Positions 1,862-38,910 of a stretch of 64,000 bases of DNA are shown one piece after another. Origin of the DNA: an uncultured Chitinophaga sp. (GTDB lineage Bacteria > Bacteroidota > Bacteroidia > Chitinophagales > Chitinophagaceae); NCBI GenBank assembly GCA_964386395.1, contig CAYLRV010000001.1, positions 23,807 to 87,806 of the forward strand, read 5' to 3'. The notes beneath the pieces are model-generated. The model worked only from the letters and a program-made list of their open reading frames with translations, searched no databases and was not told where the DNA came from. Positions within the stretch are counted from its first letter, which is position 1, and each line of letters opens with the position of its first letter. The position numbers and the translations under genes are program-made.

Positions 1862-4483
1862 TTACAACTCCCTGTCACCATATTCACTAATCAGCTCTGC
1901 CACCAGGGCCGTCCATCCTGTTTGATGGCTTGCACCAATACCTTTACCGGTATCACCGTTGAAGTATTCATAAAATAATATAAGATGTTCATTGCCGGGT
2001 TGTCTATAAAACCAGTTGTACTCACCATTGAAACGGCGGTTGCCTTCCTCATCCCGCTCAAATAAACTAATCACCCGTCTCGTGAGCTCATATGCCACCT
2101 GCACCAGGTTCATTTTTACGCCTGAGCCAGTTGGATATTCCACCTGCAGATCATCACCATAGAATTCGCCGTAGTGCCGGAGCGACTGAATGATTAAAAA
2201 ATTAATCGGCATCCACATCGGCCCACGCCAGTTAGAATTACCACCAAATAAATCGGAGGTAGAATCACCCGGATCGTATTGAATAGTGTATGTTTGTCCA
2301 TCCATTCGTACGGAGTACGGATTTTGCTCATGGTATTTTGATAAGGCCCGGATACCGCTATCGGATAAGAACCCTTTTTCATCCAGCAGACGTTCGAGTA
2401 TTGAGACCAGCCTGTCTTTTGGTACTAACGATAAAAGAATTTCACCGTCCTTGCTTCGTTCTTCATTCGGCCAGAATTTATTATTCTTCAACCGGTAGTT
2501 TTCAAACCAGGTGATACGCTTTTTAAAATCAGGTAAGCTGTCCTGCCTCGCCTTGGATATGGTAGATACTGCATAGAGCGGGGCCACACCCACGATAGAC
2601 TGAATACGCAATGGTATGGGCGCAGCACCTGTCACACAAAGCACATCATAAAAGAACCGGTCTTCCTCATTCCACAAACCATGCTCATTGAGCGACTCGG
2701 CTATCAATACAAAGTGTTCAAAAAATTTAGTGGCTGTATCCTCAAAGGATTCATCGTGAATGGCAATTTCAATCGCCATATCCATCATATCAAGTGCGAA
2801 AGCACCCATCCAACTGGTGCCATCGGCCTGCTCCAGTTGTACTTCGCCAGTAAAGTGAAGGCTGCGGTTAAATACCCCGATATTATCCAGGCCAAGGAAA
2901 CCTCCCTCAAAAATGTTGTTGCCGTTTTTATCTTTCCGGTTTATCCACCAGGTAAAGTTGATAAGCAGCTTATGAAATACTTTCTTCAAAAAATTTATAT
3001 CACCGGAACCGCTTCTTCTTTTTTCAATCTGGTACACCTGCATTGCCGCCCATGCCTGTACCGGCGGGTTTACATCGCTGAAATTCCATTCATACGAGGG
3101 TAGTTGACCATCTGGCTTCATATACCATTCCCGCATAAGCAATAGTAACTGGTGTTTGGCAAAAGTGGGGTCTGCCACGGCCATTGAAATACACTGGAAA
3201 GCGAGATCCCAGGCCGCATACCAGGGATACTCCCATTTATCCGGCATCATAATGATGTCCTGGTTCTTCAGGTGCTGCCAGTCATTGTTGCGGCCTTTTT
3301 GTTTGCCCGGGTTTACCGGGGTGATTCCATCGCTTTTACCTATCCAGCGTTCCACATCAAAATGGTAAAACTGTTTGCTCCATAACATACCGGCCAATGC
3401 CTGGCGTTGTATACGTGCCACATCCTCATTCATTCCCTTTGGGAGAATAGCCGCATAATATTCATCCGCTTCTTGTTTGCGAAGTGTGAATACATCTTTC
3501 ACAATTTTTCCAAACGGCGCATCAAACAGTTCTGTACTGAGGCGGCAATAAATTGTTTTGGTAGCGCCACCGGCAATTTTCATTTTATATACCGGCGAAA
3601 ACTTAGTGCCCTTTTTTCGGGCGGCCAGCTCTTTTATATTCTTTCCTTCTATCACAGCATCATGAAAAGCGTCCTTTACAAAAATGTCTGCATTGGGTTG
3701 CCCGAGTATTTTTTCGTTGTTGGTTCGGTTATCGGTAAACAAGCAATTGTCTGCTGCCTGAAAATAGAAATAGTAATCACCAAGCCGTTCATGCTCCGCC
3801 CGTACCGTTGTTTTATCAATAAATTCAATACAAGGAAATTTTTTAAAGGCCTGGTAACTTTGCCTGTTATAAAACCAAAGGGTTGGCAGCACCGTTATTT
3901 CCGCTGCTTCTGTGTAGCGGTTGGTGATATCTATTTTGATAAAAATATCCTGCGCACTGTGTTTTGCATACGTAATCTGCACATCAAAATACTGGTTGTT
4001 ATCAAACACACCGGTATCTAATATTTCATACTCCGGCTCCAGCCTGTTGCGCTTCTTATTTTCGTCTTTCAGTTTTTGATAGGGAAATTCCTGCTGCGGG
4101 TATTTATATAAATACTCCATGTAGTAATGCGTGGGCAGGTTATCCAGGTAGTAGTATAGTTCTTTTACATCTTCTCCATGATTGCCCTGTGGATTGCTTA
4201 AACCAAAAAGCCTTTCCTTCAGAATTGGATCTTTACCATTCCATAAGGCCACTGCAAAACAGAGATTGCCAAAATAGTCGGTAATACCACCCAGGCCATC
4301 TTCGCCCCAGAGATAGCTGCGGCTATGGGCATGATCAAAAGGAAAATAATTCCAGGCATCTCCCCATTCCCCATAGTCTTCCCGCACGGTGCCCCATTGC
4401 CGTTCACTCAGGTAAGGCCCCCATTGCGCCAATGGAATTTCTTTGGTGGCGTTTACTGCCAGCCGTTGGTGTTCTGCTGTCAT
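1862..4483 (-). CDS. GH63-like / MGH1-like glycoside hydrolase
   Basis: 873-aa ORF. The size and W/Y-rich motifs (GGFLGLDNIGVFNRS, WRGPMWMPINF) recall YgjK / mannosylglycerate-hydrolase-type enzymes. The call rests on recollection of the family only. Confidence 0.5.
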   Translation of the reverse strand: MTAEHQRLAVNATKEIPLAQWGPYLSERQWGTVREDYGEWGDAWNYFPFDHAHSRSYLWGEDGLGGITDYFGNLCFAVALWNGKDPILKERLFGLSNPQGNHGEDVKELYYYLDNLPTHYYMEYLYKYPQQEFPYQKLKDENKKRNRLEPEYEILDTGVFDNNQYFDVQITYAKHSAQDIFIKIDITNRYTEAAEITVLPTLWFYNRQSYQAFKKFPCIEFIDKTTVRAEHERLGDYYFYFQAADNCLFTDNRTNNEKILGQPNADIFVKDAFHDAVIEGKNIKELAARKKGTKFSPVYKMKIAGGATKTIYCRLSTELFDAPFGKIVKDVFTLRKQEADEYYAAILPKGMNEDVARIQRQALAGMLWSKQFYHFDVERWIGKSDGITPVNPGKQKGRNNDWQHLKNQDIIMMPDKWEYPWYAAWDLAFQCISMAVADPTFAKHQLLLLMREWYMKPDGQLPSYEWNFSDVNPPVQAWAAMQVYQIEKRRSGSGDINFLKKVFHKLLINFTWWINRKDKNGNNIFEGGFLGLDNIGVFNRSLHFTGEVQLEQADGTSWMGAFALDMMDMAIEIAIHDESFEDTATKFFEHFVLIAESLNEHGLWNEEDRFFYDVLCVTGAAPIPLRIQSIVGVAPLYAVSTISKARQDSLPDFKKRITWFENYRLKNNKFWPNEERSKDGEILLSLVPKDRLVSILERLLDEKGFLSDSGIRALSKYHEQNPYSVRMDGQTYTIQYDPGDSTSDLFGGNSNWRGPMWMPINFLIIQSLRHYGEFYGDDLQVEYPTGSGVKMNLVQVAYELTRRVISLFERDEEGNRRFNGEYNWFYRQPGNEHLILFYEYFNGDTGKGIGASHQTGWTALVAELISEYGDREL

Positions 4484-4572
4484 TTACCGGTTTTATACTT
4501 TCCCATAACAGCAAGCAAAATCGTTGGAAAAGTGAAATTAGAAATTATAACGGAATTTAAGAAAGGATAAAG

Positions 4573-5406
4573 CTATTCGTATTTTTTACTAAGCTGGTAC
4601 AATACTTTCAGCTGCTGGTCATTTAATCCCTTCGTTGTATCCTGCAACCAATGACGTTTGAAACCAATAATGGCTGCATTACTGTCCTTTGTATCATATC
4701 CAATGATCCGCAAGGCATGCAAACGATTGAAATTTGCAGGTAGCTGCACATTCGCTATATCATCATACCAGTACCCGAATCCTTTCTCCGATAATTGCTT
4801 CCAGGGAAAGCGCCAGTTGGGATCATTTTTACGGGTGGGCGCTATATCGCCGTGGCCGATAAAATTGGCTGCTGGTATGGAGTACGCATTTTTCAAACGG
4901 CCAAGCAGGGTGATCAAGCTATTTATTTGTGCTTCGGAAAAAGGCTCAAAGCCATTATTATCAAGTTCGATACCAACTGAAGAGGAATTTAAGTCAGTAG
5001 CATTGCCCCATTTGCTTACACCGGCATGGTGTGCCCTTAATAAATCATTGAGCATATGGTGCACGGTACCATCCTTACAAATTACATAGTGTGCACTTAC
5101 TTCACGGTTGCCTTTCACGGTAAACGTTCTTAACGTTTCCTCACAACTTTTCTGGGCAGTATGGTGGATGATCACATAGTTAGGCCGGCGTATGGTGAAG
5201 TTGATAGTACCAGCCCAATCCGCAGCATAATTCAATCCCGCGGAATCCTGTAAAGGATATTCAGCCAACAACTTTGCATATGCTTTTACCTGTTGCTTAT
5301 AAATTTTATTCGTACCCGCATATTTCGATTGCGAACAACCACAGGCAATAATAAGGAAGGCAAGGGACAGGGAAATGAACAAGCGGCTTTTTAAAAAGGA
5401 TTTCAT
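4573..5406 (-). CDS. N-acetylmuramoyl-L-alanine amidase (amidase_2 / AmpD-like) lipoprotein
   Basis: Lipobox LIIACGCS. Motifs YVIIHHTA, SAHYVI, HHAG, NSSSVGIELDN and IGHGDIAPTRKNDP are typical of zinc amidase_2. Confidence 0.75.
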   Translation of the reverse strand: MKSFLKSRLFISLSLAFLIIACGCSQSKYAGTNKIYKQQVKAYAKLLAEYPLQDSAGLNYAADWAGTINFTIRRPNYVIIHHTAQKSCEETLRTFTVKGNREVSAHYVICKDGTVHHMLNDLLRAHHAGVSKWGNATDLNSSSVGIELDNNGFEPFSEAQINSLITLLGRLKNAYSIPAANFIGHGDIAPTRKNDPNWRFPWKQLSEKGFGYWYDDIANVQLPANFNRLHALRIIGYDTKDSNAAIIGFKRHWLQDTTKGLNDQQLKVLYQLSKKYE

Positions 5407-5424
5407 ACCACTAAAGTAAAGACC

Positions 5425-6366
5425 TTACTGGTACTTGCGGTACAATGCATAGATTATTTTACGCACGGTGGCATTCATGGCACCACCAGAGCCATCCCGC
5501 ATAAAGTGGCGCTTAAATGCCGAAACAGCCGATGAAGGGGAGGATATATCATAGCCGATTATACGCAGCGCCATCAGGTAGTCGAACTGATCCGGAACAA
5601 CCATATTCGTCGTATCACTCCACCACAGACCATAGCCCTTGTCGCTGAAGTGTTTCCAGGGAAAGCGGAAATTGGGATCCATTTTTCGTGTAGGTGCTAT
5701 ATCACCATGGCCAATAAAATTGGCATCCGGAATTTTATACGCTCTCTTCAGGCGGCCCAGTAATATTTCAAGGCTTTGCATTTGTGCGTCGGCAAAAGCT
5801 TCGTACCCGGTATTTTCCAGCTCGATGCCAATGCTTGCAGAGTTGAGATCGGTGGTATTCCCCCATTTACCATCACCAGCATGATGCGAACGAAGTAAAT
5901 CATTCAGCATGTGATACACGGTTCCGTCACGGCAAATAAGATAATGTGAACTGGCCTCCCGGCCACCTGGTTTTGTAAATTCTGCCAGCACTTCCCTGAA
6001 TCCCTGGGTGGCTGTGTGATGAATGATAACAAAGTTGGGACGGCGTATGCCCATATTGGGCGTACCCACCCACTCTGCTGCATAAGGCAAGCCGGCTGAG
6101 TCTTCCAGCGGAAATTCAGCAATCACCCTTGCCAGTGAATCAATCATTTTATAATACAACCGGTTTGCGTAAGCGTACCTGCCTGTTGGCATGTATCTGG
6201 CGCTATCTTTTAAAGCTGAATCCAATGGATTTTTTACGATCGGATTGGGGTATTCTGTAATAGGTTGTTCACCCGGTGGTTGTGCAGCAACTGCGCCACA
6301 AAAGAGAAGGGTGGCGATTGCGGAGAGAACAGTCAAATGTTTACATATTGTTAAGGGCTTGTACAT
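5425..6366 (-). CDS. N-acetylmuramoyl-L-alanine amidase, tandem paralog
   Basis: Shares the motif set of the neighbouring gene (FVIIHHTA, SSHYLI, HHAG, IGIELEN, IGHGDIAPTRKMDP) and has an extended N-terminus. Confidence 0.75.
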   Translation of the reverse strand: MYKPLTICKHLTVLSAIATLLFCGAVAAQPPGEQPITEYPNPIVKNPLDSALKDSARYMPTGRYAYANRLYYKMIDSLARVIAEFPLEDSAGLPYAAEWVGTPNMGIRRPNFVIIHHTATQGFREVLAEFTKPGGREASSHYLICRDGTVYHMLNDLLRSHHAGDGKWGNTTDLNSASIGIELENTGYEAFADAQMQSLEILLGRLKRAYKIPDANFIGHGDIAPTRKMDPNFRFPWKHFSDKGYGLWWSDTTNMVVPDQFDYLMALRIIGYDISSPSSAVSAFKRHFMRDGSGGAMNATVRKIIYALYRKYQ

Positions 6367-6384
6367 GGGGCTACACTATAACAG

Positions 6385-7680
6385 TTACCGCTTGTTTTTA
6401 TTGTTTGGATGACGATAAAAACGGCGTTGGGGTTTGCCAGCTCCGGCACTTCTTGTACGGGGTGTATAAGCAGGTACCGGGCCGAGTGAGGCCGGCACTT
6501 CTCCCTTATCCACTTCTTTTTCAATCAGTCTTTCTATAGCAGCGAATTTATTTTGTTCTTTCTCGCCCACCAATGTGTAGGCAACACCATCTGCTTCAGC
6601 CCTGGCTGTACGGCCAATGCGATGTACATAATCCTCTCCATCGCCCGGTACATCGTAGTTGATAACGAGATCGATAGTATCAATATCTATACCGCGGCTT
6701 AATATATCCGTAGCTACCAGCAGTGGAATTCTGCCGCTGGTAAATGCGGATAGTACATTTTCCCGCTGTGACTGCTCCAGGTCGCTATGTATTTCTTCTA
6801 TCGTAAAACCACCTTGCTTCAGTTCCCTGCGCAGCTGTTTTACTGTTTGCTTTTTACTGCAAAACACCAATGCATTTTTATATGGCGTTTCTTTCAGCAG
6901 CAGTTTTATCAGTGGCAGTTTTTGCGGATCATAAACTACAAAAGCTTTTTGTACCACTTTTGCCGGTGGTTTGGATATGGCAATATTGATTTCTGCCGGG
7001 TTTTGGAGAATACGGCGGGCCAGTTGCCTTATCTTATCCGGCATAGTGGCCGAGAACAAGAGGTTTTGTCTTTTTAACGGCAGCGCTTTGATAATTTTAT
7101 TAATGTCATCCTGGAAGCCCATGTCGAGCATACGGTCTGCTTCATCCAGTACAAGAAACTGCAGGCCCTTCATATTTACATAGCCCATGTTCAGGTGGGC
7201 AATCATACGGCCAGGTGTGCAAACGATTATATCAGCCCCCATTTGCAGGGCTTTTTTCTCAGCGATAAAATTATCGCCGCTGTTGCCACCATAAATGGCG
7301 ATAGAACTGAGATGGGTAAAATAAGAAAGCCCTTCAATATGTTGTGAAATCTGGATAGCCAGTTCACGGGTGGGAACCACGATCAATGCACCTGTTTGCC
7401 CGTCCACATGGTTCTTCAGCAGGCGGTTCATAACGGGAAGCAGGAAAGCTGCCGTTTTACCAGTGCCGGTTTGTGCGGAGGCAATCACATCCCTTCCTTC
7501 CAGAATAGGTGGTATAACCTGCTCCTGAACCGGGGTGGCGGTTTCGTAATTGGAGGCTTCAATGCCCTCTAAAACTTCTGGTAGAAAATCAAATTCGGTA
7601 AATCGCACTAGTTGCTCATTTTTAGGAAAGAGGCGAAGGTAGTTGAAAATAGTTTTAGCGGGGCAAGTAACCTTAATCAC
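6385..7680 (-). CDS. DEAD-box ATP-dependent RNA helicase (RhlE-like)
   Basis: Q motif TPVQEQ, Walker A AQTGTGKT, DEAD box VLDEAD, SAT, HRIGRTARA, and a basic C-tail. The true start is probably the in-frame GTG at 7608 (VRFTEFDF...). Confidence 0.9.
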   Translation of the reverse strand: MIKVTCPAKTIFNYLRLFPKNEQLVRFTEFDFLPEVLEGIEASNYETATPVQEQVIPPILEGRDVIASAQTGTGKTAAFLLPVMNRLLKNHVDGQTGALIVVPTRELAIQISQHIEGLSYFTHLSSIAIYGGNSGDNFIAEKKALQMGADIIVCTPGRMIAHLNMGYVNMKGLQFLVLDEADRMLDMGFQDDINKIIKALPLKRQNLLFSATMPDKIRQLARRILQNPAEINIAISKPPAKVVQKAFVVYDPQKLPLIKLLLKETPYKNALVFCSKKQTVKQLRRELKQGGFTIEEIHSDLEQSQRENVLSAFTSGRIPLLVATDILSRGIDIDTIDLVINYDVPGDGEDYVHRIGRTARAEADGVAYTLVGEKEQNKFAAIERLIEKEVDKGEVPASLGPVPAYTPRTRSAGAGKPQRRFYRHPNNKNKR

Positions 7681-29583: not shown

Positions 29584-31035
29584 TTACTCTCCTACAACCT
29601 CCTCGCTTCCTTTCTTTCGCCAGGATCTATGTTTAGCCCCGTCCATTTTTACAATCTTCGGGGTAAACTTACCGACCACATCCACCAATGCCTTCTGTGA
29701 TTGCATCACAACATTAATATCCTTGTAGGCAAAAGGTGATTCATCCAGTCCGCCACCCAGCAGTTTTACGCCAAACTTATCCAGTTCGTCTTTCATCTGC
29801 TTATCGGTAACAGAAGCGATGGCCCTTGTACGGCTCATCTTCCGTCCGGCACCATGCGAGGCAGAGTTGACAGATGCGGATTCGCCTTTACCTTTTACAA
29901 TAAATCCATCGGCGGTCATTGAGCCCGGTATAATACCCAATACATCTTTACCTGCAGGTGTTGCGCCTTTACGGTGAACGATCACATCCTTACCTTCCCA
30001 TTTTTCTTTCCAGGCAAAATTGTGGTGATTCTCCACCATCTTCACTGGTTTACGTCCCAGTTGCTTCGCAATTTTGGCATGTATTACATGGTGACAGGCG
30101 CTGGCATAATCACCAGCCAGGTTCATTGCATTCCAATACTCTATGCCTTCTTCTTCATCCAGCAAAAGCCAGGCAAGATTTTTTGATTCCTGCGGCAAAC
30201 GCCTTTTGCTGATAGCCAGTTTAGTATAGTGGTTCGCTATGTTAGCACCTAGTGCCCGAGAACCGGAGTGAGTAAGAAAACCAATGTACTTACCAGCTTC
30301 TATACCCAATACCTGATCTTCTTCTGCAATATCCACGACGCCAAATTCGGCGAAGTGGTTACCCGACCCGGATGAACCTAACTGCTTCCACACACGGCCA
30401 TGCAATTTTTTCAGCATCGGTAGTTGAAAAAATAATTCATGCTCCATCACTTCGTGGTTAGCCGCCCGATCGAATTGTGCGCCGCTGCCAAACAATGTAG
30501 CCTCATTGATTTCACGGGCAAAATATGATTCCCGGTCCGTCAGATCTTTTGGGTTGATATCGAATACACTCAGGCACATACGGCATCCGATGTCTACTCC
30601 TACTCCGTAAGGGATAACAGCATTCTCGGTTGCCAGTACGCCACCGATTGGCAATCCATACCCGCTATGTGCATCTGGCATCAAGGCGCCGGCCACACTC
30701 ACCGGCAATTTAGCTGCCTGGTACATCTGGTGCATAGCGCCTTCTTCGATATGTTCCTGTCCAAATACATTAAACTGTATGCCGGTTTGGTTCAGCGAAA
30801 TTTCTGCCCCTTCCGTTTCTTTCTTTGGTATCAGCTGTTCTGCTATCAATGCAAGTACTGCGTCATTGCTGTACTCGATTGGATTGGCCAATACTTTTTG
30901 TAATAGTTCCATCACTTCCTCCTTTCCATGATGCTTATATTTTTTTTGCATCACATCCATTGCTATGCTAATTACCGGTCCTTCCGGGTAGCCAATAGTC
31001 CTTAGTTCTTTTCCTGTTATTTTTAGTTTACTCAT
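29584..31035 (-). CDS. rtcB: RNA 3'-phosphate/2',3'-cyclic-phosphate to 5'-OH ligase RtcB
   Basis: Start at ATG 31035 (MSKLKITG). Diagnostic blocks MPDAHSGYGLPIGGV, GVDIGCRM, GSGNHF, HSGSR, NHHNFA and SASHGAGR. The roughly 90-aa N-terminal extension is not found in E. coli RtcB. Confidence 0.9.
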   Translation of the reverse strand: MSKLKITGKELRTIGYPEGPVISIAMDVMQKKYKHHGKEEVMELLQKVLANPIEYSNDAVLALIAEQLIPKKETEGAEISLNQTGIQFNVFGQEHIEEGAMHQMYQAAKLPVSVAGALMPDAHSGYGLPIGGVLATENAVIPYGVGVDIGCRMCLSVFDINPKDLTDRESYFAREINEATLFGSGAQFDRAANHEVMEHELFFQLPMLKKLHGRVWKQLGSSGSGNHFAEFGVVDIAEEDQVLGIEAGKYIGFLTHSGSRALGANIANHYTKLAISKRRLPQESKNLAWLLLDEEEGIEYWNAMNLAGDYASACHHVIHAKIAKQLGRKPVKMVENHHNFAWKEKWEGKDVIVHRKGATPAGKDVLGIIPGSMTADGFIVKGKGESASVNSASHGAGRKMSRTRAIASVTDKQMKDELDKFGVKLLGGGLDESPFAYKDINVVMQSQKALVDVVGKFTPKIVKMDGAKHRSWRKKGSEEVVGE

Positions 31036-31039
31036 TGTT

Positions 31040-31130
31040 TTGTTTTTTGAAACACGGTGACAGAGAGACAGGGGCGGCACAGTGTTTTTCGGTGTTGCCC
31101 TGTGTCGTTATGCCTTTGTGGTTCTATTTT
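31040..31130. repeat. GAACCACRRAG-type repeat arm (family shared with the GxxExxY cassette flanks)
   Basis: The reverse complement reads gaaccacaaaggcataacgacacagggcaac.... Compare gaaccacggagacacaaggacaggg at 38937. Confidence 0.45.
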
Positions 31131-31166
31131 TTGTTTACCAGCGACAGTAACTCCGGTCATCTTATG

Positions 31167-31352
31167 TTGCGTCGCACACTTCAGCTGCATATCCCTAATC
31201 ATCATAATCCCACATAATTTACCCTTTATTTAGATTCTCAAGCGCATCAATAAACTGTGCAACCCTTTCATCTTCTGACTCCTTGATAATAAAATCTAAC
31301 CGTTCAAAAGTATTTTCCAATAGAATTACAACAGTACAAGTGTGCGACGCAA
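31167..31352. repeat. Perfect 15-bp inverted repeat (TTGCGTCGCACACTT) bracketing about 150 bp
   Basis: 31167-31181 is the reverse complement of 31338-31352. The left arm is also found at 13325. Confidence 0.7.
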
Positions 31353-31383
31353 GGGACGATGATAGAAGCAATACAGCCTGTAA

Positions 31384-31425
31384 CATAAAAACATAAAACA
31401 TCCGGTACCGTTATAATACCGGATG
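31384..31425 (-). terminator. Rho-independent terminator after the SPFH gene
   Basis: 9-bp stem catccggta/taccggatg (31399-31425). On the minus strand it is followed by TTTTATGTTTTTATG. Confidence 0.75.
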
Positions 31426-31429
31426 TATA

Positions 31430-32527
31430 TTATTTACTTACCAAAATCTGCTTCAACTGCTCTAATAGCTGACCGTTACCGCCTACGCTGATATTGCTGA
31501 TTTTGTCGGCAATTTTCTCCACGTATTCCATTTCCTTCAGCTTCCAAAGCATGGCATTTTCTTCCATCAGTTTGGCTGTGTTCAGCAGGCTACGGGTGCT
31601 GGCAGTTTCTTCACGACGCATAATGGTGTTGGCCTGCGCCTTCTTTTCTGCCACCAGTACCTGGTTCATAATCTCTTTCATATCACCTGGCAGTATGATA
31701 TCACGAATACCAAAACCATTCACCGCAACACCCAATGCTTCTGCTTTTCCTTTCACACTTTGCAGGATAAAAGGAGCAATGGCTTCCTTCTTTTCCAGCA
31801 ATTCATCAAAGCCGAATCCGGCAATGTATTCACGCAGGGCCAGTTGCAGCGCCACGTACAGTTGCTTATCGTATTCTTTGTTCAGCACCATAGCTATTTC
31901 AAGGTCTGTTACGTTGTACTGTGACCAGGCATTGATACGCAATGCAGCCTTATCACGGGTCAGTATTTCCTGACCGTTGATTTCCAGTTGTTGCTGACGC
32001 ATATCTGCTTTCGCTACATGGATAGTGATACTGTTCTTCCACCAATAGTAGGTACCTGCATCCAGTTGCTTTACAAACTTACCATCTATGAACAACACCG
32101 CTTTCTCATAGCTTTGCACCTCGTAGTTACGCACCCAGTTGCTCACCGGTGCTTTTACCAGTACGGCACGGTCGATAGCCGTATCGATTTCAACCTGGCT
32201 GATATCAGCCCGAACGAAATCATTTTGCACAACAGATTTCCAGAATGCATAACGGCCGGCCGCCAGCACCTGCTTCAACAGGCCATTTTCGTATTGCAAC
32301 ACTATTTCTGTGTCTTTCACTTCCACTACCTGCAGTATAGCAGCCAGCTCCTTGTCCTGCAACAGGATGTTTAGTTCTACCGGTGCAGTGAATTGTTTGG
32401 TAATATCATAGATATATACCTGTTCGTTTTTCCAGAACCAGTAATTACCAGTCAGCAGCAGGCGCTTGTAGGCGCCATCTTTGAACACCAAACCAACCTG
32501 CCATGCGTTAATTTTTACTTTTTTCAT
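31430..32527 (-). CDS. SPFH/band-7 (slipin-like) domain protein with a duplicated N-terminal beta-rich region
   Basis: Start at ATG 32527 (MKKVKINAWQVGLVFKDG). C-terminal SPFH-type block IRDIILPGDMKEIMNQVLVAEKKAQANTIMRREETA. The N-terminal half contains two similar YWFWKN / YYWWKN segments. Confidence 0.7.
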   Translation of the reverse strand: MKKVKINAWQVGLVFKDGAYKRLLLTGNYWFWKNEQVYIYDITKQFTAPVELNILLQDKELAAILQVVEVKDTEIVLQYENGLLKQVLAAGRYAFWKSVVQNDFVRADISQVEIDTAIDRAVLVKAPVSNWVRNYEVQSYEKAVLFIDGKFVKQLDAGTYYWWKNSITIHVAKADMRQQQLEINGQEILTRDKAALRINAWSQYNVTDLEIAMVLNKEYDKQLYVALQLALREYIAGFGFDELLEKKEAIAPFILQSVKGKAEALGVAVNGFGIRDIILPGDMKEIMNQVLVAEKKAQANTIMRREETASTRSLLNTAKLMEENAMLWKLKEMEYVEKIADKISNISVGGNGQLLEQLKQILVSK

Positions 32528-32839
32528 TTTACTTGTTTTGCCCGTCAATAAACATTTATTTACTGTCAGCATGATTAATTAAAATAAAGCCGTGCTTGCC
32601 GCCACCAGTTACTACGGAATGAGATTAATACAACCCAGTTTCGTACAGTTCTTCACTCCCTCATCAGCTATACGTATATAACAAACTATGAGTGACGAAG
32701 TATAGTCAACTTCATTATACGCTTCTTATTTCGGGTAGCTGCCCGGCTGTATTGGTACAGGCTGCTTTAGCGTCCCGACCAATTACAGGCAACAAACCCG
32801 GCTTTTATCGGTCACCATTTTTTGAGAAGTGGTGTACTT

Positions 32840-33020
32840 CTTTGATACAAGCATCCTAAGTGCTTTGCGTTTACCATTTCCGCCATTTCCCCTTTAGAGG
32901 GAAAGCGGGATTCGAACCCGCATATTGTCTGTTGCTCTGTCCACTAAGCTACCGGGCCCATTGCCCGGATGGGATTCGAACCCATGACCCACAGGTTGTG
33001 GTGATATATGTATCAGTGAA
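32840..33020 (-). ncRNA. Structured RNA with two tandem, circularly permuted tRNA-like modules (YrlA / Y-RNA-like)
   Basis: Minus-sense order is: GATAC ATAT [ATCACCACAA] CCTGT GGGTC; T-arm1 ATGGG-TTCGAAT-CCCAT (32969-32985); loop-closed acceptor hairpin CCGGGC-AATGG-GCCCGG; TA; D-arm1 GCTT-AGTGGACA-GAGC; A; ACAG ACA ATAT G; T-arm2 GCGGG-TTCGAAT-CCCGC (32905-32921); hairpin TTTCCCT-CTAAA-GGGGAAA; TG; D-arm2; anticodon-like arm AAGCA-CTTAGGA-TGCTT; GTATC. The outer segments GATAC/GTATC, ATAT/ATAT and CCTGT/ACAG are complementary. The ends of the RNA are uncertain. Confidence 0.5.
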
Positions 33021-33163
33021 ATAATAGCATACAGATAGCTATTGCGTCTGCACTGCCATGCTTGTTAAACATGTACCTGGTTTATTTTCAACAGGCATAT
33101 ATCATCTTGCCGTTAAGCAAGCCATTACGTTGATGTTTTCGCATCAACAATATTGTAAAGAGC

Positions 33164-34240
33164 TTAATTCATCAATGTCTCCGGCAGGCGAAACCCAATT
33201 ATCTCGGTCTGCTTTACTTCCTGCTGCTTTTCATGCGGGTTGGCGATCTCCGCTATTGTCATCGGACCGGTTATTGTTTTATCATATCCCAAATGTTCGC
33301 TTAGCCGCTGCGCTTTTTCTTTACTGAGCTTTCCGAATTCATAACGGGCTATCAACCTTCCTTTCCGCAACAGGGCACTGTCAATGGCTGTCAGTGAACT
33401 GTTGAATGTGCATATCAATTGCACATTCAGGAAGTCGGCCAGCAGACCATCTGATATATTCAGCAGGTTACTCACCGCTGAACTGCTGTTTTGCTTCCTG
33501 TCCATGATAATATTCTCGGCATCTTCAATTATCAAGACTGTATTCGGGTTATTGATCAGCAGTTCGATAAACTCAGGGTTCATCAGGTTTCCCGCTACCG
33601 ATGGTGAAAGGAATAAAACCCTTTTCTTTACCTTACCCACCAGGTACCGTAAATAGGTTGTCTTTCCTGTACCCGGTAAACCATGCAGCAGTACAATACC
33701 TTTGTCATTCTTTTGCCTGAGCCTTTTTTGTATGACCGTATCCACATCTTTAAAATCGTCTTCGTAAAAAAGTCCCAGATCCAGCTTTGTCCGTTTTATT
33801 TCCATCGCCCGCAGATCCATCGAATTCCGGCTTTGCACAATCAGGTTGATCTCCAATGGCTGCCGGCGTTGCCTTTCTTTAAACTGAAGGGCAATGGCAA
33901 CAATCGCTTTTACCAGTTCCCCGTCACTGCCATCGTGGAGTATTTCGCAATAGTCATCCTCCAGCTCCACAATACAGTTTTGTTGCAACACAATAAGCGT
34001 TTTATCAAACTGAAATTTCTTCTTTTTACGCTTGTACCAGGTCGTCCGATGAATGTTCTTTATTGATTGCGCAAATTTCTCCTGCAATACAGCAAACACC
34101 TTCTCCCCTTCCACATCGCTGATAAAATTGATGTTTGGCAGTGCGTTAAAACTGTACAGGTACAACATCTTTGCGTCCAGGAAAGAGTCGCCAAACACAT
34201 TGTTTGCGTTTATAACTTTCTGACTGTATAGATTTTCCAT
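33164..34240 (-). CDS. AAA+ ATPase (classical AAA clade, Bcs1-like architecture) with an uncharacterised N-terminal domain
   Basis: Walker A HGLPGTGKTT, Walker B VLIIEDAE, second region of homology with RKGRL. The N-terminal roughly 190 aa carry no recognisable motifs. Confidence 0.8.
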   Translation of the reverse strand: MENLYSQKVINANNVFGDSFLDAKMLYLYSFNALPNINFISDVEGEKVFAVLQEKFAQSIKNIHRTTWYKRKKKKFQFDKTLIVLQQNCIVELEDDYCEILHDGSDGELVKAIVAIALQFKERQRRQPLEINLIVQSRNSMDLRAMEIKRTKLDLGLFYEDDFKDVDTVIQKRLRQKNDKGIVLLHGLPGTGKTTYLRYLVGKVKKRVLFLSPSVAGNLMNPEFIELLINNPNTVLIIEDAENIIMDRKQNSSSAVSNLLNISDGLLADFLNVQLICTFNSSLTAIDSALLRKGRLIARYEFGKLSKEKAQRLSEHLGYDKTITGPMTIAEIANPHEKQQEVKQTEIIGFRLPETLMN

Positions 34241-34341: not shown

Positions 34342-34848
34342 TTACTGTACCACTTTATTTGCACAGCTGGAGCTGGCAAAAGCTTCCGGTTTAGCCTTGA
34401 AAGCAAAACCCCTGCCTGTCCGGCAGGCAGGCATTCCCATGATATAGCCCATAGCTTCCTTCAGGGCATCGTTACTTTTAAAGTTTGGGTTGGTGTTGAT
34501 GTCCGCATGCACTTCCATATCCACACTGTAGCGGCTGAATATGTTGCACAGTGCATAGGCTACTTCGATACTTTTCTGTACTTCCATCAACATCCGTTCT
34601 TTAATCGTCATACGCTGGCGGGTTGTTTCATTATGGATATACATGAAACCACCTTTCCCTTTCCGGATGAATACGATTACCGTGGCAAACTCAGTCACCC
34701 TGGCTTTCACCTGGCTATCGGTACCAATGCAGACTTTCAATTCATGTCCATTCTCTTTTTCCTGCATCAATACACGGCTTACCTCTTCCGCAATCGGGAT
34801 TTGAATCCGTTCACCGGTCAATTTTCTCCATTGTTGTTCCTGTTCCAT
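34342..34848 (-). CDS. YkuK/DUF458-family RNase-H-like protein
   Basis: 168 aa. KVCIGTDSQ, FATVIVFIRKGKGGF and KPEAFASS resemble the DUF458 family. Carries the 21-nt palindrome in frame at 34411-34431. The start codon lies 30 nt downstream (minus sense) of the last tRNA-like element. Confidence 0.55.
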   Translation of the reverse strand: MEQEQQWRKLTGERIQIPIAEEVSRVLMQEKENGHELKVCIGTDSQVKARVTEFATVIVFIRKGKGGFMYIHNETTRQRMTIKERMLMEVQKSIEVAYALCNIFSRYSVDMEVHADINTNPNFKSNDALKEAMGYIMGMPACRTGRGFAFKAKPEAFASSSCANKVVQ

Positions 34849-34943: not shown

Positions 34944-34950
34944 CTTTTGT

Positions 34951-35022
34951 GGACAAAACAGGATTCGAACCTGTACTGCTGCGGCTTCAACGCAGTGCTC
35001 TGCCATTGGAGCTATTTGTCCT
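34951..35022 (-). tRNA. tRNA-Phe(GAA)
   Basis: GGACAAA TA GCTC-CAATGGCA-GAGC A CTGCG-TTGAAGC-CGCAG CAGT ACAGG-TTCGAAT-CCTGT TTTGTCC A. A fully canonical cloverleaf with no encoded CCA. Confidence 0.9.
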
Positions 35023-35116
35023 TTTGTTTGTACCTGCACTGGCTGATCTTTTACACTTCATCACCGAATTGTGTTGCACAAACTCTGTCTTCCCGCCATA
35101 GCGGAATTATCATTGC

Positions 35117-35204
35117 GGAGAGTAAAGGATTCGAACCTTTGTACCGTTGTGAACGACAGCCCAAGCTTAGCAGGCTGGCACATTACCACTCTGTCAACCC
35201 TCCT
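35117..35204 (-). tRNA. tRNA-Ser(GCU), class II
   Basis: GGAGGGT TG ACA-GAGTGGTAA-TGT G CCAGC-CTGCTAA-GCTTG, long variable arm GTCGTT-CAC-AACGGT, AAAGG-TTCGAAT-CCTTT ACTCTCC G. There is one C.U mismatch in the anticodon stem. Confidence 0.75.
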
Positions 35205-35208
35205 TTGT

Positions 35209-35292
35209 GTGATTAATAAGATTCGAACTTATTCAGCCCGAAGGCAACGGTTTTACAGACCGTTACGACTCTCCGTCTTCGTCGTACTCACC
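35209..35292 (-). tRNA. tRNA-Tyr(GUA), class II
   Basis: GTGAGTA CG ACGA-AGACGGAGAG-TCGT A ACGGT-CTGTAAA-ACCGT, variable arm GCC-TTCG-GGC, ATAAG-TTCGAAT-CTTAT TAATCAC A. Has C8 instead of U8 and one G.A mismatch in the acceptor. Confidence 0.8.
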
Positions 35293-35303
35293 AAAATTTC
35301 AGC

Positions 35304-35380
35304 GGATGAAGAAAGGGTCGAACTTTCAACCATCGGCTTAACATCCGCCACTGGCGGACTGCCATTGAGCTATTCATCCA
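35304..35380 (-). ncRNA. tRNA-like element E (perfect acceptor and T-arm, non-canonical core)
   Basis: GGATGAA TA GCTC AATGGCAG [TCCGCC-AGT-GGCGGA] TGTTAAGCCGATGGTT GAAAG-TTCGACC-CTTTC TTCATCC G. It has no D-stem partner and no 5-bp stem with a 7-nt anticodon loop. ATGTTAA could be a GUU (Asn) loop only with a poor stem. Confidence 0.4.
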
Positions 35381-35384
35381 TTGT

Positions 35385-35458
35385 TGTCCCGGTGAGATTC
35401 GAACTCACAACCCCCCGGTTAAAAGCCGGGTACATCTTCCAGTTGAGCTACGAGACAT
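35385..35458 (-). tRNA. tRNA-Lys(UUU) with a weak D-stem
   Basis: TGTCTCG TA GCTC-AACTGGAA-GATG TA CCCGG-CTTTTAA-CCGGG GGGTT GTGAG-TTCGAAT-CTCAC CGGGACA A. U1-A72 pair. Only 2 of 4 D-stem pairs form. Confidence 0.65.
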
Positions 35459-35464
35459 TTTTGT

Positions 35465-35556
35465 TGCGGCTACCGGATTCACTGTCTGCCGACAGGCAGG
35501 GAACCAGTAACTCCTGCCATGTAAAAACAGCTTTCTCCCATTGAATTAAGCCGCAC
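35465..35556 (-). tRNA. tRNA-Val(UAC)-like with a 20-nt T-loop insertion
   Basis: TGCGGCT TA ATTC-AATGGGA-GAAA G CTGTT-TTTACAT-GGCAG GAGTT ACTGG-TTC[CCTGCCTGTCGGCAGACAGT]GAAT-CCGGT AGCCGCA A. The insertion occupies plus 35482-35501. Confidence 0.6.
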
Positions 35557-35573
35557 TGCTTCATAAGGTTTGT

Positions 35574-35645
35574 GATGGTTGACAGATTCGAACTGTCAGC
35601 CGCTATCGTATCAGGATAGTACTCTGCCATTGAGTTAAACCATCA
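35574..35645 (-). tRNA. tRNA-Ile(GAU)
   Basis: GATGGTT TA ACTC-AATGGCA-GAGT A CTATC-CTGATAC-GATAG CGGCT GACAG-TTCGAAT-CTGTC AACCATC A. Canonical cloverleaf. Confidence 0.9.
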
Positions 35646-35649
35646 TTGT

Positions 35650-35721
35650 TGCGGCTGCCAGATTCGAACCAGCATTTGAAGCTTATGAGACTTCTGAGTT
35701 AGCCATTACGCTAAACCGCAA
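35650..35721 (-). tRNA. tRNA with CAU anticodon (Met or Ile2; cannot be distinguished here)
   Basis: TGCGGTT TA GCGT-AATGGCTA-ACTC A GAAGT-CTCATAA-GCTTC AAAT GCTGG-TTCGAAT-CTGGC AGCCGCA A. One D-stem mismatch and a G.U-rich T-stem. Confidence 0.7.
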
Positions 35722-35730
35722 TTAATATGT

Positions 35731-35804
35731 AAGCCTGGTGAGAATCGAACTCACACTACATGGCTTCTAAGGCCATTGCCTCTCCCAATTGGGCTACAAG
35801 CTTA
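35731..35804 (-). tRNA. tRNA with Leu anticodon UAG on a class I (short variable loop) body
   Basis: AAGCTTG TA GCCC-AATTGGGAG-AGGC A ATGGC-CTTAGAA-GCCAT GTAGT GTGAG-TTCGATT-CTCAC CAGGCTT A. Confidence 0.7.
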
Positions 35805-35814
35805 TTTCATTTGT

Positions 35815-35887
35815 CGGCCAGACTGGATTCGAACCAGTAACCTTTTGCGTATAAGGCAACTGCTCACACCGTTGAGCTACAGGCCGC
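35815..35887 (-). tRNA. tRNA-Ile(UAU)
   Basis: CGGCCTG TA GCTC-AACGGTGT-GAGC A GTTGC-CTTATAC-GCAAA AGGTT ACTGG-TTCGAAT-CCAGT CTGGCCG A. One U.U mismatch in the acceptor. Confidence 0.8.
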
Positions 35888-35895
35888 TTGTTTGC

Positions 35896-35988
35896 TGACT
35901 CAGAAAGATTCCCTGCCAGTCGGCAGACAGGGAACTTTCATCTCCTCATTCGTAGTGAGGTGTTCTTCTCCATTGAACTATAAGTCAT
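35896..35988 (-). tRNA. tRNA-Arg(ACG) with a 20-nt T-loop insertion
   Basis: TGACTTA TA GTTC-AATGGAGAA-GAAC A CCTCA-CTACGAA-TGAGG AGAT GAAAG-TTC[CCTGTCTGCCGACTGGCAGG]GAAT-CTTTC TGAGTCA G. The insertion occupies plus 35913-35932. All four stems are otherwise good. Confidence 0.7.
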
Positions 35989-35993
35989 CATTG

Positions 35994-36110
35994 TACGGCT
36001 TCAGGAATTCCTGCCTGGCCGGCAGCCAGGGAACCTCTGCAACGATCACCTGCTATTTTCCTCTCAGAAAGAAAGGGAGGTGATTATGTTTCCATTACAA
36101 CAAGCCGTAT
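35994..36110 (-). tRNA. Aberrant tRNA-like gene (possible Gln-CUG) with a T-loop insertion and an elongated anticodon arm
   Basis: Acceptor ACGGCTT/AAGCCGT (or TACGGCT/AGCCGTA). Outer stem CACCT/AGGTG encloses CCC TTTCT-TTCTGAG-AGGAA AATAGC. T-loop TTC[CCTGGCTGCCGGCCAGGCAG]GAAT (insertion at plus 36012-36031). The T-stem is weak. Confidence 0.4.
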
Positions 36111-36113
36111 TGG

Positions 36114-36186
36114 GTGCACTGCGGGGCTCGAACCCTGTTCTCCCGATGCACAGTCGGGCACTTTACCAAATAAGCTACAGCCACCA
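36114..36186 (-). tRNA. tRNA-His(GUG) with encoded G-1
   Basis: G(-1) GTGGCTG TA GCTT-ATTTGGTA-AAGT G CCCGA-CTGTGCA-TCGGG AGAA CAGGG-TTCGAGC-CCC.. CAGTGCAC C. G-1 lies opposite C73. The 3' acceptor strand has TG where C is expected, giving a 1x2 internal loop. Confidence 0.7.
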
Positions 36187-37331: not shown

Positions 37332-37739
37332 TCAAATATCAACTGAATCATACACTATTACTTTACTCCACAAATGCGAATATTCCTCAATGAAAAGCAG
37401 GTGAATGGGATCAGTTTGATAACTCGCATGGTCTGCATCATTTTCAAAATACACCAGCCAGGATACAGCATAGCCTCTTTCAATTACTTCACGATTAGTA
37501 TCAGCCGGTTTACCAATCCGGAAACTTTTTATCGTTTTTACTTTCGATAATTTATGCAAACCTTCCACTAATTTTTCCCTGTCAGCAAGATTGTCCGTAT
37601 TCTTTAACCAGAAGAATACATGATGAATAAATGCAGCCTTCTTTTTGCCAGTTGATTTTGTTCCTGAAAAAGAAGATAACCCTGTTACGAGTGCGGCTGC
37701 ACCTGCTTTATTGATAAATTGTTTGCGGGTTTGTTTCAT
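37332..37739 (-). CDS. Dabb (stress-responsive A/B barrel) family protein with a Tat-like signal
   Basis: Start at ATG 37739 (MKQTRKQFINKAGAAALVTG). FIHHVFFWLKN...ASYQTDPIHLLFIE is typical of Dabb domains. Confidence 0.65.
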   Translation of the reverse strand: MKQTRKQFINKAGAAALVTGLSSFSGTKSTGKKKAAFIHHVFFWLKNTDNLADREKLVEGLHKLSKVKTIKSFRIGKPADTNREVIERGYAVSWLVYFENDADHASYQTDPIHLLFIEEYSHLWSKVIVYDSVDI

Positions 37740-37800
37740 GATGCCTGTATTTTCGGCATAAGGTAATGCAAAATTAAATGCCGGCAATCGCAGACCTGTT

Positions 37801-38910
37801 TCAAAACAACCTCCCCTGCCCGCCCGGTACCTGGAACTTACTCCTGTCAAGGCTCCATTCCTCCGCATTCATGCCGTATAGCTTACCGTATTTTTTATAC
37901 TGCATCGCTACCATCTCTGCGATATTCCCTTCGCCACGCATGCGTACGCCCCATCGGGTATCATTTACTTTTCCATCGTGGCTTTGTTCGATCAGGTGCC
38001 ACACTTTATCTGCCCTGTCGGGAAAGTTCTTATATAACCAGTCGTGAAATAGAAATTTTATCGCCCCGTTGAGCCGTATGAATGTATACGCTGTAAAGGT
38101 TGCGCCGTTGTCCTTCGCTGCTTTCATGATACGCTGCATTTCATGTTCATTCAGGCCCGGTATCATCGGCCCCATCATGATGCCCATCCGTACTCCTGCG
38201 CTGCTTAACTCGTTTATCACTTTCAGTTTTTGCTTAGCTGTGGTGGTGCGTGGCTCCATTGCCCTTCGCAGATCTTCATTGAAGGATGTAATGGATACCA
38301 TGGCTGACACAATCTGTTTCTTGCCCATTTCCTGCAGCACATCCTTGTCCTTCAGTATCCAGGAGTTTTTGGTGAGTATACCTACCGGCTGGTTAAATTC
38401 ATTGCAGACTTCCAGTAATCCTCTCGTCAGCCGGTATTTTTGTTCGGCAGGCTGGTAGCAATCGGTATTGCCACTGAGCATGATCGGCGTGGCATCCCAA
38501 TCCTTTTTCATCAGGAATTTTCGCAGCAGTTGTGGTGCATTTTTCTTGACAATTATTTTTCGCTCAAAATCCAGCCCGGCACTGTAACCCCAGTATTCAT
38601 GCACATTTCTTGCATAGCAATAGATGCAGCCATGCTCGCACCCGGCATACGGGTTCATGCTGTACATCATTCCCACATCCCTGCTCTCTACTTTGTTTAC
38701 GATGGTTTTTGATTCCTGTTCCATGTAAATAGTTGGCACATTTGATTCTTCCCAGTCGTCAATGCCTTCAATGTGCTCTCTTGTTGTTTCATTTTTTAAA
38801 AACCGGTTCTTTGTATTGAACTGGGCACCGCGACCGGCGAGGTAGGGCTTTGTTTCTTCAGGTTGCTTCACTTCTACTTTGAAATGATCTTGTTGCAAAT
38901 CCTTGCTCAT
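37801..38910 (-). CDS. Radical SAM protein (PA0069 / SplB-like COG1533 family)
   Basis: CxxxCxxC cluster motif in AGCEHGCIYCYARN. The length and remaining sequence fit the PA0069-type family. Confidence 0.75.
   Translation of the reverse strand: MSKDLQQDHFKVEVKQPEETKPYLAGRGAQFNTKNRFLKNETTREHIEGIDDWEESNVPTIYMEQESKTIVNKVESRDVGMMYSMNPYAGCEHGCIYCYARNVHEYWGYSAGLDFERKIIVKKNAPQLLRKFLMKKDWDATPIMLSGNTDCYQPAEQKYRLTRGLLEVCNEFNQPVGILTKNSWILKDKDVLQEMGKKQIVSAMVSITSFNEDLRRAMEPRTTTAKQKLKVINELSSAGVRMGIMMGPMIPGLNEHEMQRIMKAAKDNGATFTAYTFIRLNGAIKFLFHDWLYKNFPDRADKVWHLIEQSHDGKVNDTRWGVRMRGEGNIAEMVAMQYKKYGKLYGMNAEEWSLDRSKFQVPGGQGRLF

Follow-up and report, generated by a model that had tools for sequence, protein, structure and literature searches.

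A conserved RNA with two permuted tRNA-like modules upstream of an SPFH/Band-7 gene in an RtcB RNA-repair cluster of Chitinophagaceae

Introduction

YrlA RNAs, which lie near Rsr as defined by Chen et al. (2014; PMC4201824), are stable tRNA mimics modified by TruB and DusA. Although embedded in the rsr-rtcBA operon, both YrlA and YrlB are stable RNAs that act in trans (Wang et al., 10.1101/312249). Such bacterial Y-like tRNA mimics, as well as the Rtc RNA-repair operon, are understood in outline only. Here, we describe an RNA encoded on the minus strand of a 64,000-nt stretch of DNA (the window; all coordinates are its positions) from an uncultured Chitinophaga sp. (GenBank assembly GCA_964386395.1, contig CAYLRV010000001.1, positions 23,807 to 87,806). 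It consists of two consecutive tRNA-like modules in permuted order, joined to further structured domains, and lies immediately upstream of an SPFH/Band-7 gene in a cluster with the RtcB RNA ligase gene.

Since 2016, the SPFH/Band-7 branch of Rtc repair systems has been known from computational prediction only. In the abstract of their work of that year, Burroughs and Aravind reportedly spoke of SPFH/Band-7 modules with "a novel tRNA-like molecule" as cofactors. As related by Wang et al. (10.1101/312249), these authors predicted a tRNA associated with Band-7, called b7a-tRNA, a non-coding RNA (ncRNA) next to RtcB which "strongly resembles an authentic tRNA", and noted an occasional YrlA adjoining Band-7. 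Our text search for "b7a-tRNA" returned this one source only. A 2026 paper on an SPFH gene within the P. aeruginosa rtc locus and the RlaP preprint, which also has an SPFH gene in an rtc locus, do not mention the RNA. A preliminary description of the window had suggested that a two-module version would be new if no TROVE/Ro gene is present in the window. By the account of Wang et al., the concept of a Ro-less tRNA-like or YrlA-like RNA beside Band-7 and RtcB is not new, as it was part of the 2016 prediction.

Two permuted tRNA-like modules

The two modules occupy positions 32994–32849 of the minus strand and share the order T-arm, loop-closed acceptor hairpin, D-arm. Their elements, all on the minus strand, are as follows.

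32929–32994, minus: module 1, a YrlA-like tRNA mimic (Rfam YrlA match and covariation)
32994–32991 with 32932–32929, minus: module 1 stem CUGU/ACAG, in the position of the anticodon stem; then GGGUC, resembling a variable loop
32985–32969, minus: T-arm 1, AUGGG-UUCGAAU-CCCAU
32968–32952, minus: closed acceptor-like hairpin 1, CCGGGC-AAUGG-GCCCGG, with UA after it
32949–32934, minus: D-arm 1, GCUU-AGUGGACA-GAGC, then A26
32922–32928, minus: inter-module linker of 7 nt, variable in length and sequence
32849–32921, minus: module 2, a permuted complete tRNA mimic (covariation)
32921–32905, minus: T-arm 2, GCGGG-UUCGAAU-CCCGC
32904–32886, minus: closed 7-bp acceptor hairpin 2, UUUCCCU-CUAAA-GGGGAAA, with UG after it
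32883–32867, minus: D-arm 2, tRNA-Leu-like, then A
32865–32849, minus: anticodon arm AAGCA-CUUAGGA-UGCUU, loop CUUAGGA, triplet UAG

Scanning species-representative genomes with the AAA+ protein encoded next to the RNA provided 80 Chitinophagaceae loci, 47 of which carry two T-loops spaced 57–69 nt apart, as detected with a simple T-loop pattern. On a plain MAFFT alignment, RNAalifold recovered all proposed arms, with compensatory changes in 32 of 50 pairs. A covariance model, R1 (197 positions, 43 pairs), scored 183.9 bits at the window RNA and 130–186 bits in 47 other loci from many genera, whereas real tRNA arrays reached at most ~80 bits. In the resulting 48-sequence alignment, 97.2% of base-pair cells are paired, compared with 74.4% after shuffling (a value of 97.2% was reached in none of 500 shuffles) and 36–46% when partners were slid by 1–3 columns. 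Double-sided changes are present in 35 of the 43 pairs, and the covariation score equals 0.618 vs. 0.194 for shuffled data. This alignment was fitted to R1 and is thus biased toward the structure, with the unfitted MAFFT/RNAalifold result in agreement. Covariation was detected in every helix save the invariant pseudoknot stem S1 described below; helices 1–4 of module 1 are 95–99.6% paired, with double changes in 17 of 19 pairs, and helices 5–8 of module 2 are 93–99.6% paired, with double changes in 18 of 20. The existence of the RNA, its structure, its conservation and its gene linkage (see below) are demonstrated by computation.

Hence, the two permuted modules of the preliminary description are present with all their elements and covary across the 48 loci, as does the full anticodon arm of module 2 (AAGCA-CTTAGGA-TGCTT in DNA letters), and the comparison of homologous intergenic regions which it had called for gave a strong signal (the 35 pairs above). 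For the pairs that were to close module 1, the outcome is mixed: the four-pair CUGU/ACAG stem is 99.5% paired and covaries in all four pairs, whereas ATAT/ATAT is paired in 40.6% of cells over 45 sequences, which is background. The GATAC/GTATC clamp postulated around the whole RNA likewise remains at background (42.5% of cells over 45 sequences). For both, the alignment is imprecise in these variable stretches. We also considered other pairings. The single-sequence minimum free energy fold, which pairs the two near-palindromic T-arms with each other, was dropped because the local hairpins covary independently. A helix between the inter-module linker and the linker after the anticodon arm was rejected as well; by eye, AAUC/GAUU looks plausible in the tRNA-Leu-like class of module 2, but the Ile-like class does not have it. 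RNAalifold further suggested a long-range pairing of 3 bp, GCU/AGC, in which changes are seen on one side only.

Neither ARAGORN nor Rfam at curated thresholds called a tRNA in the RNA region, and the Rfam tRNA model gave at most 24 bits there in a permissive scan, so that the region is not re-parsed as ordinary unpermuted tRNA genes. The canonical gene order (acceptor-D-anticodon-T-acceptor with a free 3' end) is absent, the acceptor strands forming closed hairpins instead. Since the acceptor stems are sealed by loops, the RNA has no free 3' end to aminoacylate and is no ordinary substrate for RNase P or RNase Z. The intact D- and T-loops in both modules imply a putative elbow. Module 1 has the topology of YrlA, in that its anticodon stem opens into the remaining RNA.

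Tandem or dimeric tRNAs are known to produce false positives of the YrlA pattern (Chen et al., 2014; PMC4201824), a tRNA array is located 2 kb upstream and R1 weakly matches real arrays, all of which would suit a region of functionless, decayed tandem tRNA genes derived from that array. This explanation is effectively refuted. Each acceptor strand is paired with its adjacent neighbor instead of across a tRNA body, with covariation in the respective helices (3 and 6), the architecture is kept across many genera at scores well separated from those of the arrays, and its position relative to the SPFH gene is fixed. A tandem-tRNA false positive is excluded here because the closed hairpins covary.

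The anticodon loop of module 2

The D- and anticodon arms of module 2 fall into two classes, tRNA-Ile(GAU)-like and tRNA-Leu-like, the window RNA being Leu-like with the triplet UAG. Among 48 species, the frame of the anticodon loop is kept (Y32 in 44, U33 in 37, R37 in 47 and A38 in 45), while the loop itself appears as 34 different 7-mers with 21 different triplets, and 11 loops are devoid of U33 (alignment A5, columns 173–189).

These data bear on the view that the modules are circularly permuted tRNA genes of the Cyanidioschyzon merolae type which give a functional tRNA. RtcB would then join the precursor ends in the variable-loop region, RNase P and RNase Z would open the acceptor loop, and CCA would be added. 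Module 2 does have all tRNA elements in permuted order, including the 7-bp acceptor stem, U8, G18/G19 and the T-loop, its anticodon loop frame is canonical in most species, and the nearby RtcB gene encodes an RNA ligase able to circularize. Nevertheless, we find this view hardly credible, considering that module 1 has no anticodon arm at all, that U33 is often missing and the triplets are erratic, that the acceptor hairpins of three loci (L010, L047, and L078) extend far beyond 7 bp, and that the flanks to be joined are variable and form no conserved helix or bulge-helix-bulge. Moreover, the tRNA-Leu-like class has no long variable arm, and single-module variants as well as a variant without D- and anticodon arms occur.

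Relation to YrlA

YrlA (RF02553) was the one meaningful match of the permissive Rfam scan, at 32927–32993 on the minus strand (39.2 bits, E = 4e-7 in local mode), below the family threshold of 69 bits. The match covers model positions 23–88 only, which correspond to the tRNA-like core of module 1, and leaves positions 1–22 and 89–114 unmatched; module 1 is the only part of the RNA that Rfam detects. No YrlA match was obtained at E ≤ 1e-5 in nine related loci or at the gathering threshold in the window, and Rfam 15 contains no family for this RNA. Based on alignment and covariation, module 1 has the T-arm 5' of the D-arm and the loop-closed acceptor by which YrlA is recognized. The YrlA likeness put forward in the preliminary description therefore holds for the topology of module 1 and the Rfam core match, but not for the family threshold or the Ro-binding helix: no Y-RNA-like terminal (Ro-binding) helix is conserved in the RNA, the candidate clamps being at background. 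In agreement with that description, we found no TROVE (PF05731) gene among 38 open reading frames (ORFs) of the window searched with Pfam, a set comprising the local ones and all those of at least 350 aa. None was found either among ten ORFs from the SPFH-RtcB gaps of relatives scanned in the same way. By threshold, Ro helix and Ro neighbor alike, the RNA is outside the YrlA family as defined.

It is very improbable, in our estimate, that the RNA is a genuine Ro-binding Y RNA, i.e., an orthologue of YrlA with the gene for its Ro60/Rsr partner at another site of the genome. Such a relation would account for the core match of module 1 and for the proximity of RtcB, as in Salmonella; it is contradicted by the score under the Rfam threshold, the unmatched Ro-helix positions, the lack of a conserved terminal helix and of TROVE among the scanned ORFs, and by the fact that the RNA tracks the SPFH gene and no other.

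The 5' hairpins, the pseudoknot and the edges of the RNA

The extent of 32840–33020 given in the preliminary description proved too narrow. In the alignment of relatives, conservation spans ~33126 to ~32790, with a further motif beginning at 33165. The RNA measures ~310–335 nt overall (~33122–32813 in the window) and includes three 5' hairpins and a 3' pseudoknot in addition to the two modules. The following elements were recognized outside the modules.

33148–33165, minus: motif AAG(C/U)UCUUUAnAAUAUU(G), i.e., AAGYUCUUUAnAAUAUU, overlapping the AAA+ stop codon
33129–33148, minus: hairpin GUUGAUG-CGAAAA-CAUCAAC; by eye, a hairpin in every locus and never the same in sequence
33105–33122, minus: 5' hairpin P0, CUUGC/GCAAG, covarying (UA 33, CG 5; GC 30, CG 8; CG 33, GC 4, UA 2)
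33055–33076, minus: 5' hairpin P1, columns 80–87 with 98–104 (GC 24/AU 11, UA 23/CG 8, GC 26/AU 14)
33029–33053, minus: 5' hairpin P2, GUGCAGA...UCUGUAU (AU 26–30 with GC 6, CG 6; UA 27–28 with CG 13–17)
32995–33028, minus: leader with a semi-conserved CCNCCA-type segment, no structure established
32813–32840, minus: H-type pseudoknot, 3' of the variable linker after module 2 (covariation)
32840–32837 with 32829–32826, minus: pseudoknot stem S1, GAAG/CUUC, invariant (helix 9)
32834–32830 with 32817–32813, minus: pseudoknot stem S2, CACC(A)/(U)GGUG
32785–32805, minus: conserved AAAGCCGGG...CCGGC-type segment, 3' of the pseudoknot

Hairpin P2 is followed on its 3' side by a near-invariant UGUAUGCUNUUG. 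In the pseudoknot, S2 is supported by covariation at pair 1 (C-G 47, G-C 3), pair 2 (A-U 46, G-C 6) and pair 3 (C-G 41, G-C 10, U-A 2, with zero mismatches), and the connecting loop is A-rich, UCAAAAAA, and 5 or 8 nt long across relatives. The S1 hairpin (4 bp, 7-nt loop) sits where a T-arm would follow the anticodon arm of module 2. A riboswitch such as preQ1 was considered for the pseudoknot and dismissed, as no Rfam match was obtained up to E = 10.

The 33148–33165 motif accompanies the RNA regardless of the upstream gene (this gene differs in L031, L071, L075, and L041) and may serve as a promoter or mark the 5' end of the RNA; no convincing Bacteroidetes-type promoter (TAnnTTTG) was found upstream of the RNA. 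On the other side, weaker conserved patches run on from the 32785–32805 segment to the SPFH start, and no terminator was found in between. As for this start, the mechanical ORF begins at ATG 32572, while the start conserved across relatives is ATG 32527 (MKKVK...), which is probably the true one. Translation from ATG 32527 leaves a longer untranslated spacer after the RNA.

Linkage to the SPFH gene

The genes relevant here were identified by a Pfam scan of the window ORFs and are all encoded on the minus strand. Their order on that strand is: tRNA array, PF04308 RNaseH-like gene, AAA+ gene, the RNA, SPFH/Band-7 gene, two small ORFs, RtcB.

34949–36184, minus: tRNA array of 7–9 genes (ARAGORN and Rfam at curated thresholds), ~2 kb upstream of the RNA
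34342–34848, minus: RNaseH-like PF04308 gene, conserved upstream pair with the AAA+ gene
33164–34240, minus: AAA+ ATPase gene, stop codon at 33164–33166, conserved upstream pair with the PF04308 gene
31430–32527, minus: SPFH/Band-7 (slipin) gene, downstream neighbor of the RNA
29584–31080, minus: RtcB RNA ligase gene (PF01139, 3e-81)

In the synteny map of the 80 loci, the RNA and a full SPFH gene occur together in 50, the SPFH gene without the RNA in none, and neither of them in 25. The five loci with the RNA alone all represent contig ends or truncated SPFH genes. Wherever the SPFH gene is complete (50 of 50 loci), the RNA is on the same strand and its 3' end lies 226–384 nt (median 292) upstream. 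This spacing holds where the SPFH gene has moved relative to the AAA+ gene (L020, L036, L031, L071, L072, L075, and others). In turn, among the 25 loci devoid of both, at least 10 have the AAA+ gene abutting RtcB, three retain only a C-terminal SPFH remnant, and some have the AAA+ gene and no RtcB match. As far as gene order can tell, this shows that the RNA is tied to the SPFH gene and not to AAA+ or RtcB, and comparative genomics suggested the SPFH protein as its partner candidate. The preliminary description, which saw no Ro partner for the RNA, had overlooked this co-occurrence as well as the RtcB gene located 1.8 kb downstream on the same strand.

Natural variants of the RNA were observed among the relatives. 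In four loci, module 1 is swapped for a plain hairpin which keeps the CUGU/ACAG-type stem (L045, 1982–2131; L048, 7456–7605; L058, 9234–9380; L050, 5729–5915), and in one locus (L032, 9967–10128) module 2 has lost its D- and anticodon arms. All five keep hairpin P2 and the pseudoknot, and the first four also keep a complete module 2.

The SPFH protein comprises N-terminal beta-repeats, a stomatin-like SPFH domain and then long helices; no hydrophobic stretch of transmembrane length was noticed by eye, and no hydropathy or transmembrane prediction was run. PADLOC and NCBIfam scans of the neighboring proteins gave nothing useful except RtcB and a weak HflK match. Both AAA+ and SPFH proteins have thousands of homologs (at least 8,000 SPFH candidates were scored), and among the matches listed the closest (70–86% identity) all belong to Chitinophagaceae or other Bacteroidota. 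The rest of the window is ordinary Bacteroidota chromosome, including T9SS sorting tails. A phage origin was considered and dismissed, as phage sequences gave no match to a 10-kb query in megablast or to the SPFH protein in tblastn.

The constrained position of the RNA can be read differently. According to the main rival explanation, which we regard as possible but rather unlikely, the RNA would act in cis, as a leader or as a sensor of damage, from within the 5' untranslated region of the SPFH(-RtcB) mRNA. Its mimics would be cut, modified or bound by tRNA-attacking agents such as anticodon nucleases, an event whose occurrence or repair would switch the downstream repair genes, with the pseudoknot and the 226–384-nt spacer as the expression platform. 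The unvarying strand and distance relative to SPFH, the lack of an intrinsic terminator, and the conserved patches reaching the SPFH start codon agree with this, and a module 2 loop that keeps Y32, U33, R37, and A38 but varies its triplet is what one would expect of a bait. A tRNA array in the cluster and HEPN RNases in some relatives (see below) point the same way. However, YrlA and YrlB are operon-embedded too and yet trans-acting (10.1101/312249), so position does not discriminate between the two roles. Furthermore, we found no alternative terminator/antiterminator pairing or pairing that would sequester the ribosome binding site, and the joint loss of RNA and SPFH with RtcB retained fits a protein partner at least equally well.

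Other genes of the cluster

The upstream same-strand tRNA array is conserved in relatives (L001–L080, ~3000–6900), with up to 16 genes. Its commonest members are Phe-GAA (51 loci), Lys-UUU (44), Asn-GUU (40), Arg-ACG (36), and Gln-UUG (34), followed by His-GUG (33), Asp-GUC (28), Ile-GAU (24), and Glu-UUC (22). With the exception of Phe-GAA and Ile-GAU, they are for the most part known anticodon-nuclease targets, which suggests a set of spare tRNAs. Two of the window's array tRNAs (36113–36184 and 35303–35379) score weakly.

The gap between SPFH and RtcB is filled in the window by two small ORFs (31032–31401). In relatives, it harbors either a tandem pair of RlaP nucleotidyltransferase genes (PF10127) or a gene for an LA2681-type HEPN protein (PF18733), a predicted RNase (L017, 6916–8532; L046, 4114–5688; L027, 9839–11669; also L060, L078, L059, L023, and L040). 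The gap thus appears to be a variable cassette slot.

The AAA+ ATPase has an uncharacterized N-terminal region of ~170 residues. The AAA+/PF04308 pair is 70–83% identical across Chitinophagaceae and still adjoins RtcB where SPFH and the RNA are absent. Upstream of the tRNA array (37332–38910, minus) lie two more genes, one for a protein of the radical SAM type (PF04055) and one for a Dabb stress-barrel protein. They are syntenic in many relatives, with 70–94% identity of the radical SAM protein, and may belong to the same island as the array and the RtcB cluster.

SPFH-linked tRNA-like elements beyond Bacteroidota

Full-length SPFH orthologs with 36–42% identity were found in other phyla by tblastn against plasmid and chromid records. 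In Photobacterium (L085) and Burkholderia (L084), SPFH is followed by RtcB and preceded by two and one tRNA-like units, respectively, in normal order. These units score 42–54 bits under Rfam tRNA, and ARAGORN labels two of the three (one per organism) "tRNA-???" because the anticodon loop is abnormal. In Subdoligranulum, the SPFH-RtcB genes are preceded by a T-arm, a second T-arm, a closed 7-bp hairpin, a D-like arm and an anticodon-like arm, that is, by the same permuted order as in module 2. In turn, SPFH (slipin) of Citrobacter (L082, 5640–5900) and E. coli (L081, 5700–5930) is followed by a nucleotidyltransferase gene, not RtcB. In both leaders, a sigma-54-like promoter is accompanied by a T-arm, a closed hairpin of 7 bp and a long stem-loop whose loop has 7 nt. 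The Citrobacter gene adjoins a divergent rtcR; the E. coli record lists no rtcR, its gene table being incomplete. The leader element is not annotated in the Citrobacter and E. coli records and has no Rfam match at E ≤ 0.01. The Citrobacter promoter lies upstream of the tRNA-like element, which is therefore part of the leader there, a point in favor of a cis-acting role. Judging from these genomes, a predicted tRNA-like RNA upstream of SPFH is a general feature of Rtc-type repair loci, with both normal-order and closed-acceptor forms.

Proposed role of the RNA

Taking the analysis as a whole, we think it fairly probable that the RNA, as a tRNA mimic that cannot be charged, serves as a cofactor for the SPFH protein of the RtcB RNA-repair cluster. 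Its transcript would come from the operon strand and be processed into a stable RNA, which the oligomeric SPFH protein would bind, by analogy with the binding of Y RNA to Ro. Once bound, the RNA could function as a scaffold, adaptor or decoy resembling tRNA, through which repair factors that recognize tRNA (RtcB, joined in relatives by the RlaP nucleotidyltransferases) are either brought to damaged tRNA or shielded.

Several points weigh against a cofactor role. Transcription, processing, SPFH binding and the part in repair are all steps that we infer, and the AlphaFold model of the SPFH protein (mean pLDDT 56.6) is too poor for a search of RNA-binding surfaces or folds. The lack of a terminator between the RNA and SPFH makes a pure cis leader role possible. 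A simple scaffold does not explain the hypervariable triplet of module 2. Finally, tRNA models do not see the window RNA, whereas b7a-tRNA is said to resemble an authentic tRNA strongly, and the equivalence of the two rests on the secondary description by Wang et al. (10.1101/312249).

The kept loop frame, the variable triplet and the arrays of nuclease-target-like tRNAs make a bait or decoy role of the RNA conceivable. A more far-reaching idea, to which we attach little probability, is that the whole locus may be an integrated anticodon-nuclease countermeasure, combining spare tRNAs, resealing by RtcB and a double tRNA mimic as uncharged bait or sensor. The spare tRNAs would cover the Lys-UUU, Asn, His, Asp, Tyr, Arg-ACG, Gln, and Glu targets, and cleavage of the RNA, or its capture by the SPFH assembly, would report or absorb the attack. 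If true, the role would be new to a Y-like RNA as well as to a soluble SPFH protein.

Whichever role applies, the locus offers a well-defined, richly covarying RNA with natural one- and two-module variants and a strict protein partner candidate. Its carriers include cultivable soil bacteria (relatives of Terrimonas, Niastella, Lacibacter, and Pinibacter), and the alignment can serve as the seed for a family absent from Rfam 15.

Comparison with known systems

Circularly permuted tRNA genes are reportedly found in the red alga C. merolae, as described by Soma et al. in 2007. Module 2 resembles them in that the T-arm and the 3' acceptor strand precede the 5' acceptor strand, D-arm and anticodon arm, and in that these parts are joined by a short loop. 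It differs by the absence of a conserved junction helix or bulge-helix-bulge, by erratic anticodon loops and by its occurrence in a bacterium without splicing endonuclease context. A second parallel is provided by vaults, which contain small vault RNAs; the shoulder domain of MVP has an SPFH-like fold, and TEP1 has a TROVE domain. As in vault and Ro ribonucleoproteins, the genes of an oligomeric SPFH-fold protein and of a small structured RNA are coupled here, within a system that is evolutionarily tied to Ro/TROVE modules of RNA surveillance. The parallel concerns gene linkage, a cage or RNA binding by this SPFH protein being hypothetical.

Module 1 has in common with YrlA the T-arm placed 5' of the D-arm, the loop-closed acceptor and the open anticodon stem, and the RNA is likewise encoded in an operon with RtcB. 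In contrast to YrlA, it has another, complete tRNA-like module as well as a pseudoknot on the 3' side and a three-hairpin domain on the 5' side; we found no Ro-binding helix in it and no Ro/TROVE gene nearby, its obligate neighbor being SPFH.

A further counterpart is b7a-tRNA, as far as it is described by Wang et al. (10.1101/312249). Both are predicted ncRNAs with tRNA features in an RtcB neighborhood (with RlaP in relatives), and the RNA reported here lies immediately upstream of Band-7/SPFH on the same strand in 50 of 50 loci. The Burkholderia and Photobacterium units strongly resemble tRNA, as the published wording has it. The window RNA, in contrast, is permuted, two-module and closed at the acceptor in the manner of YrlA, with extra domains; set against the same wording, its D-, T- and anticodon arms are tRNA-like, its order is permuted, ARAGORN calls no tRNA and Rfam tRNA gives its low score. 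In relation to b7a-tRNA, the RNA would be a variant with the same association, a different topology and added domains.

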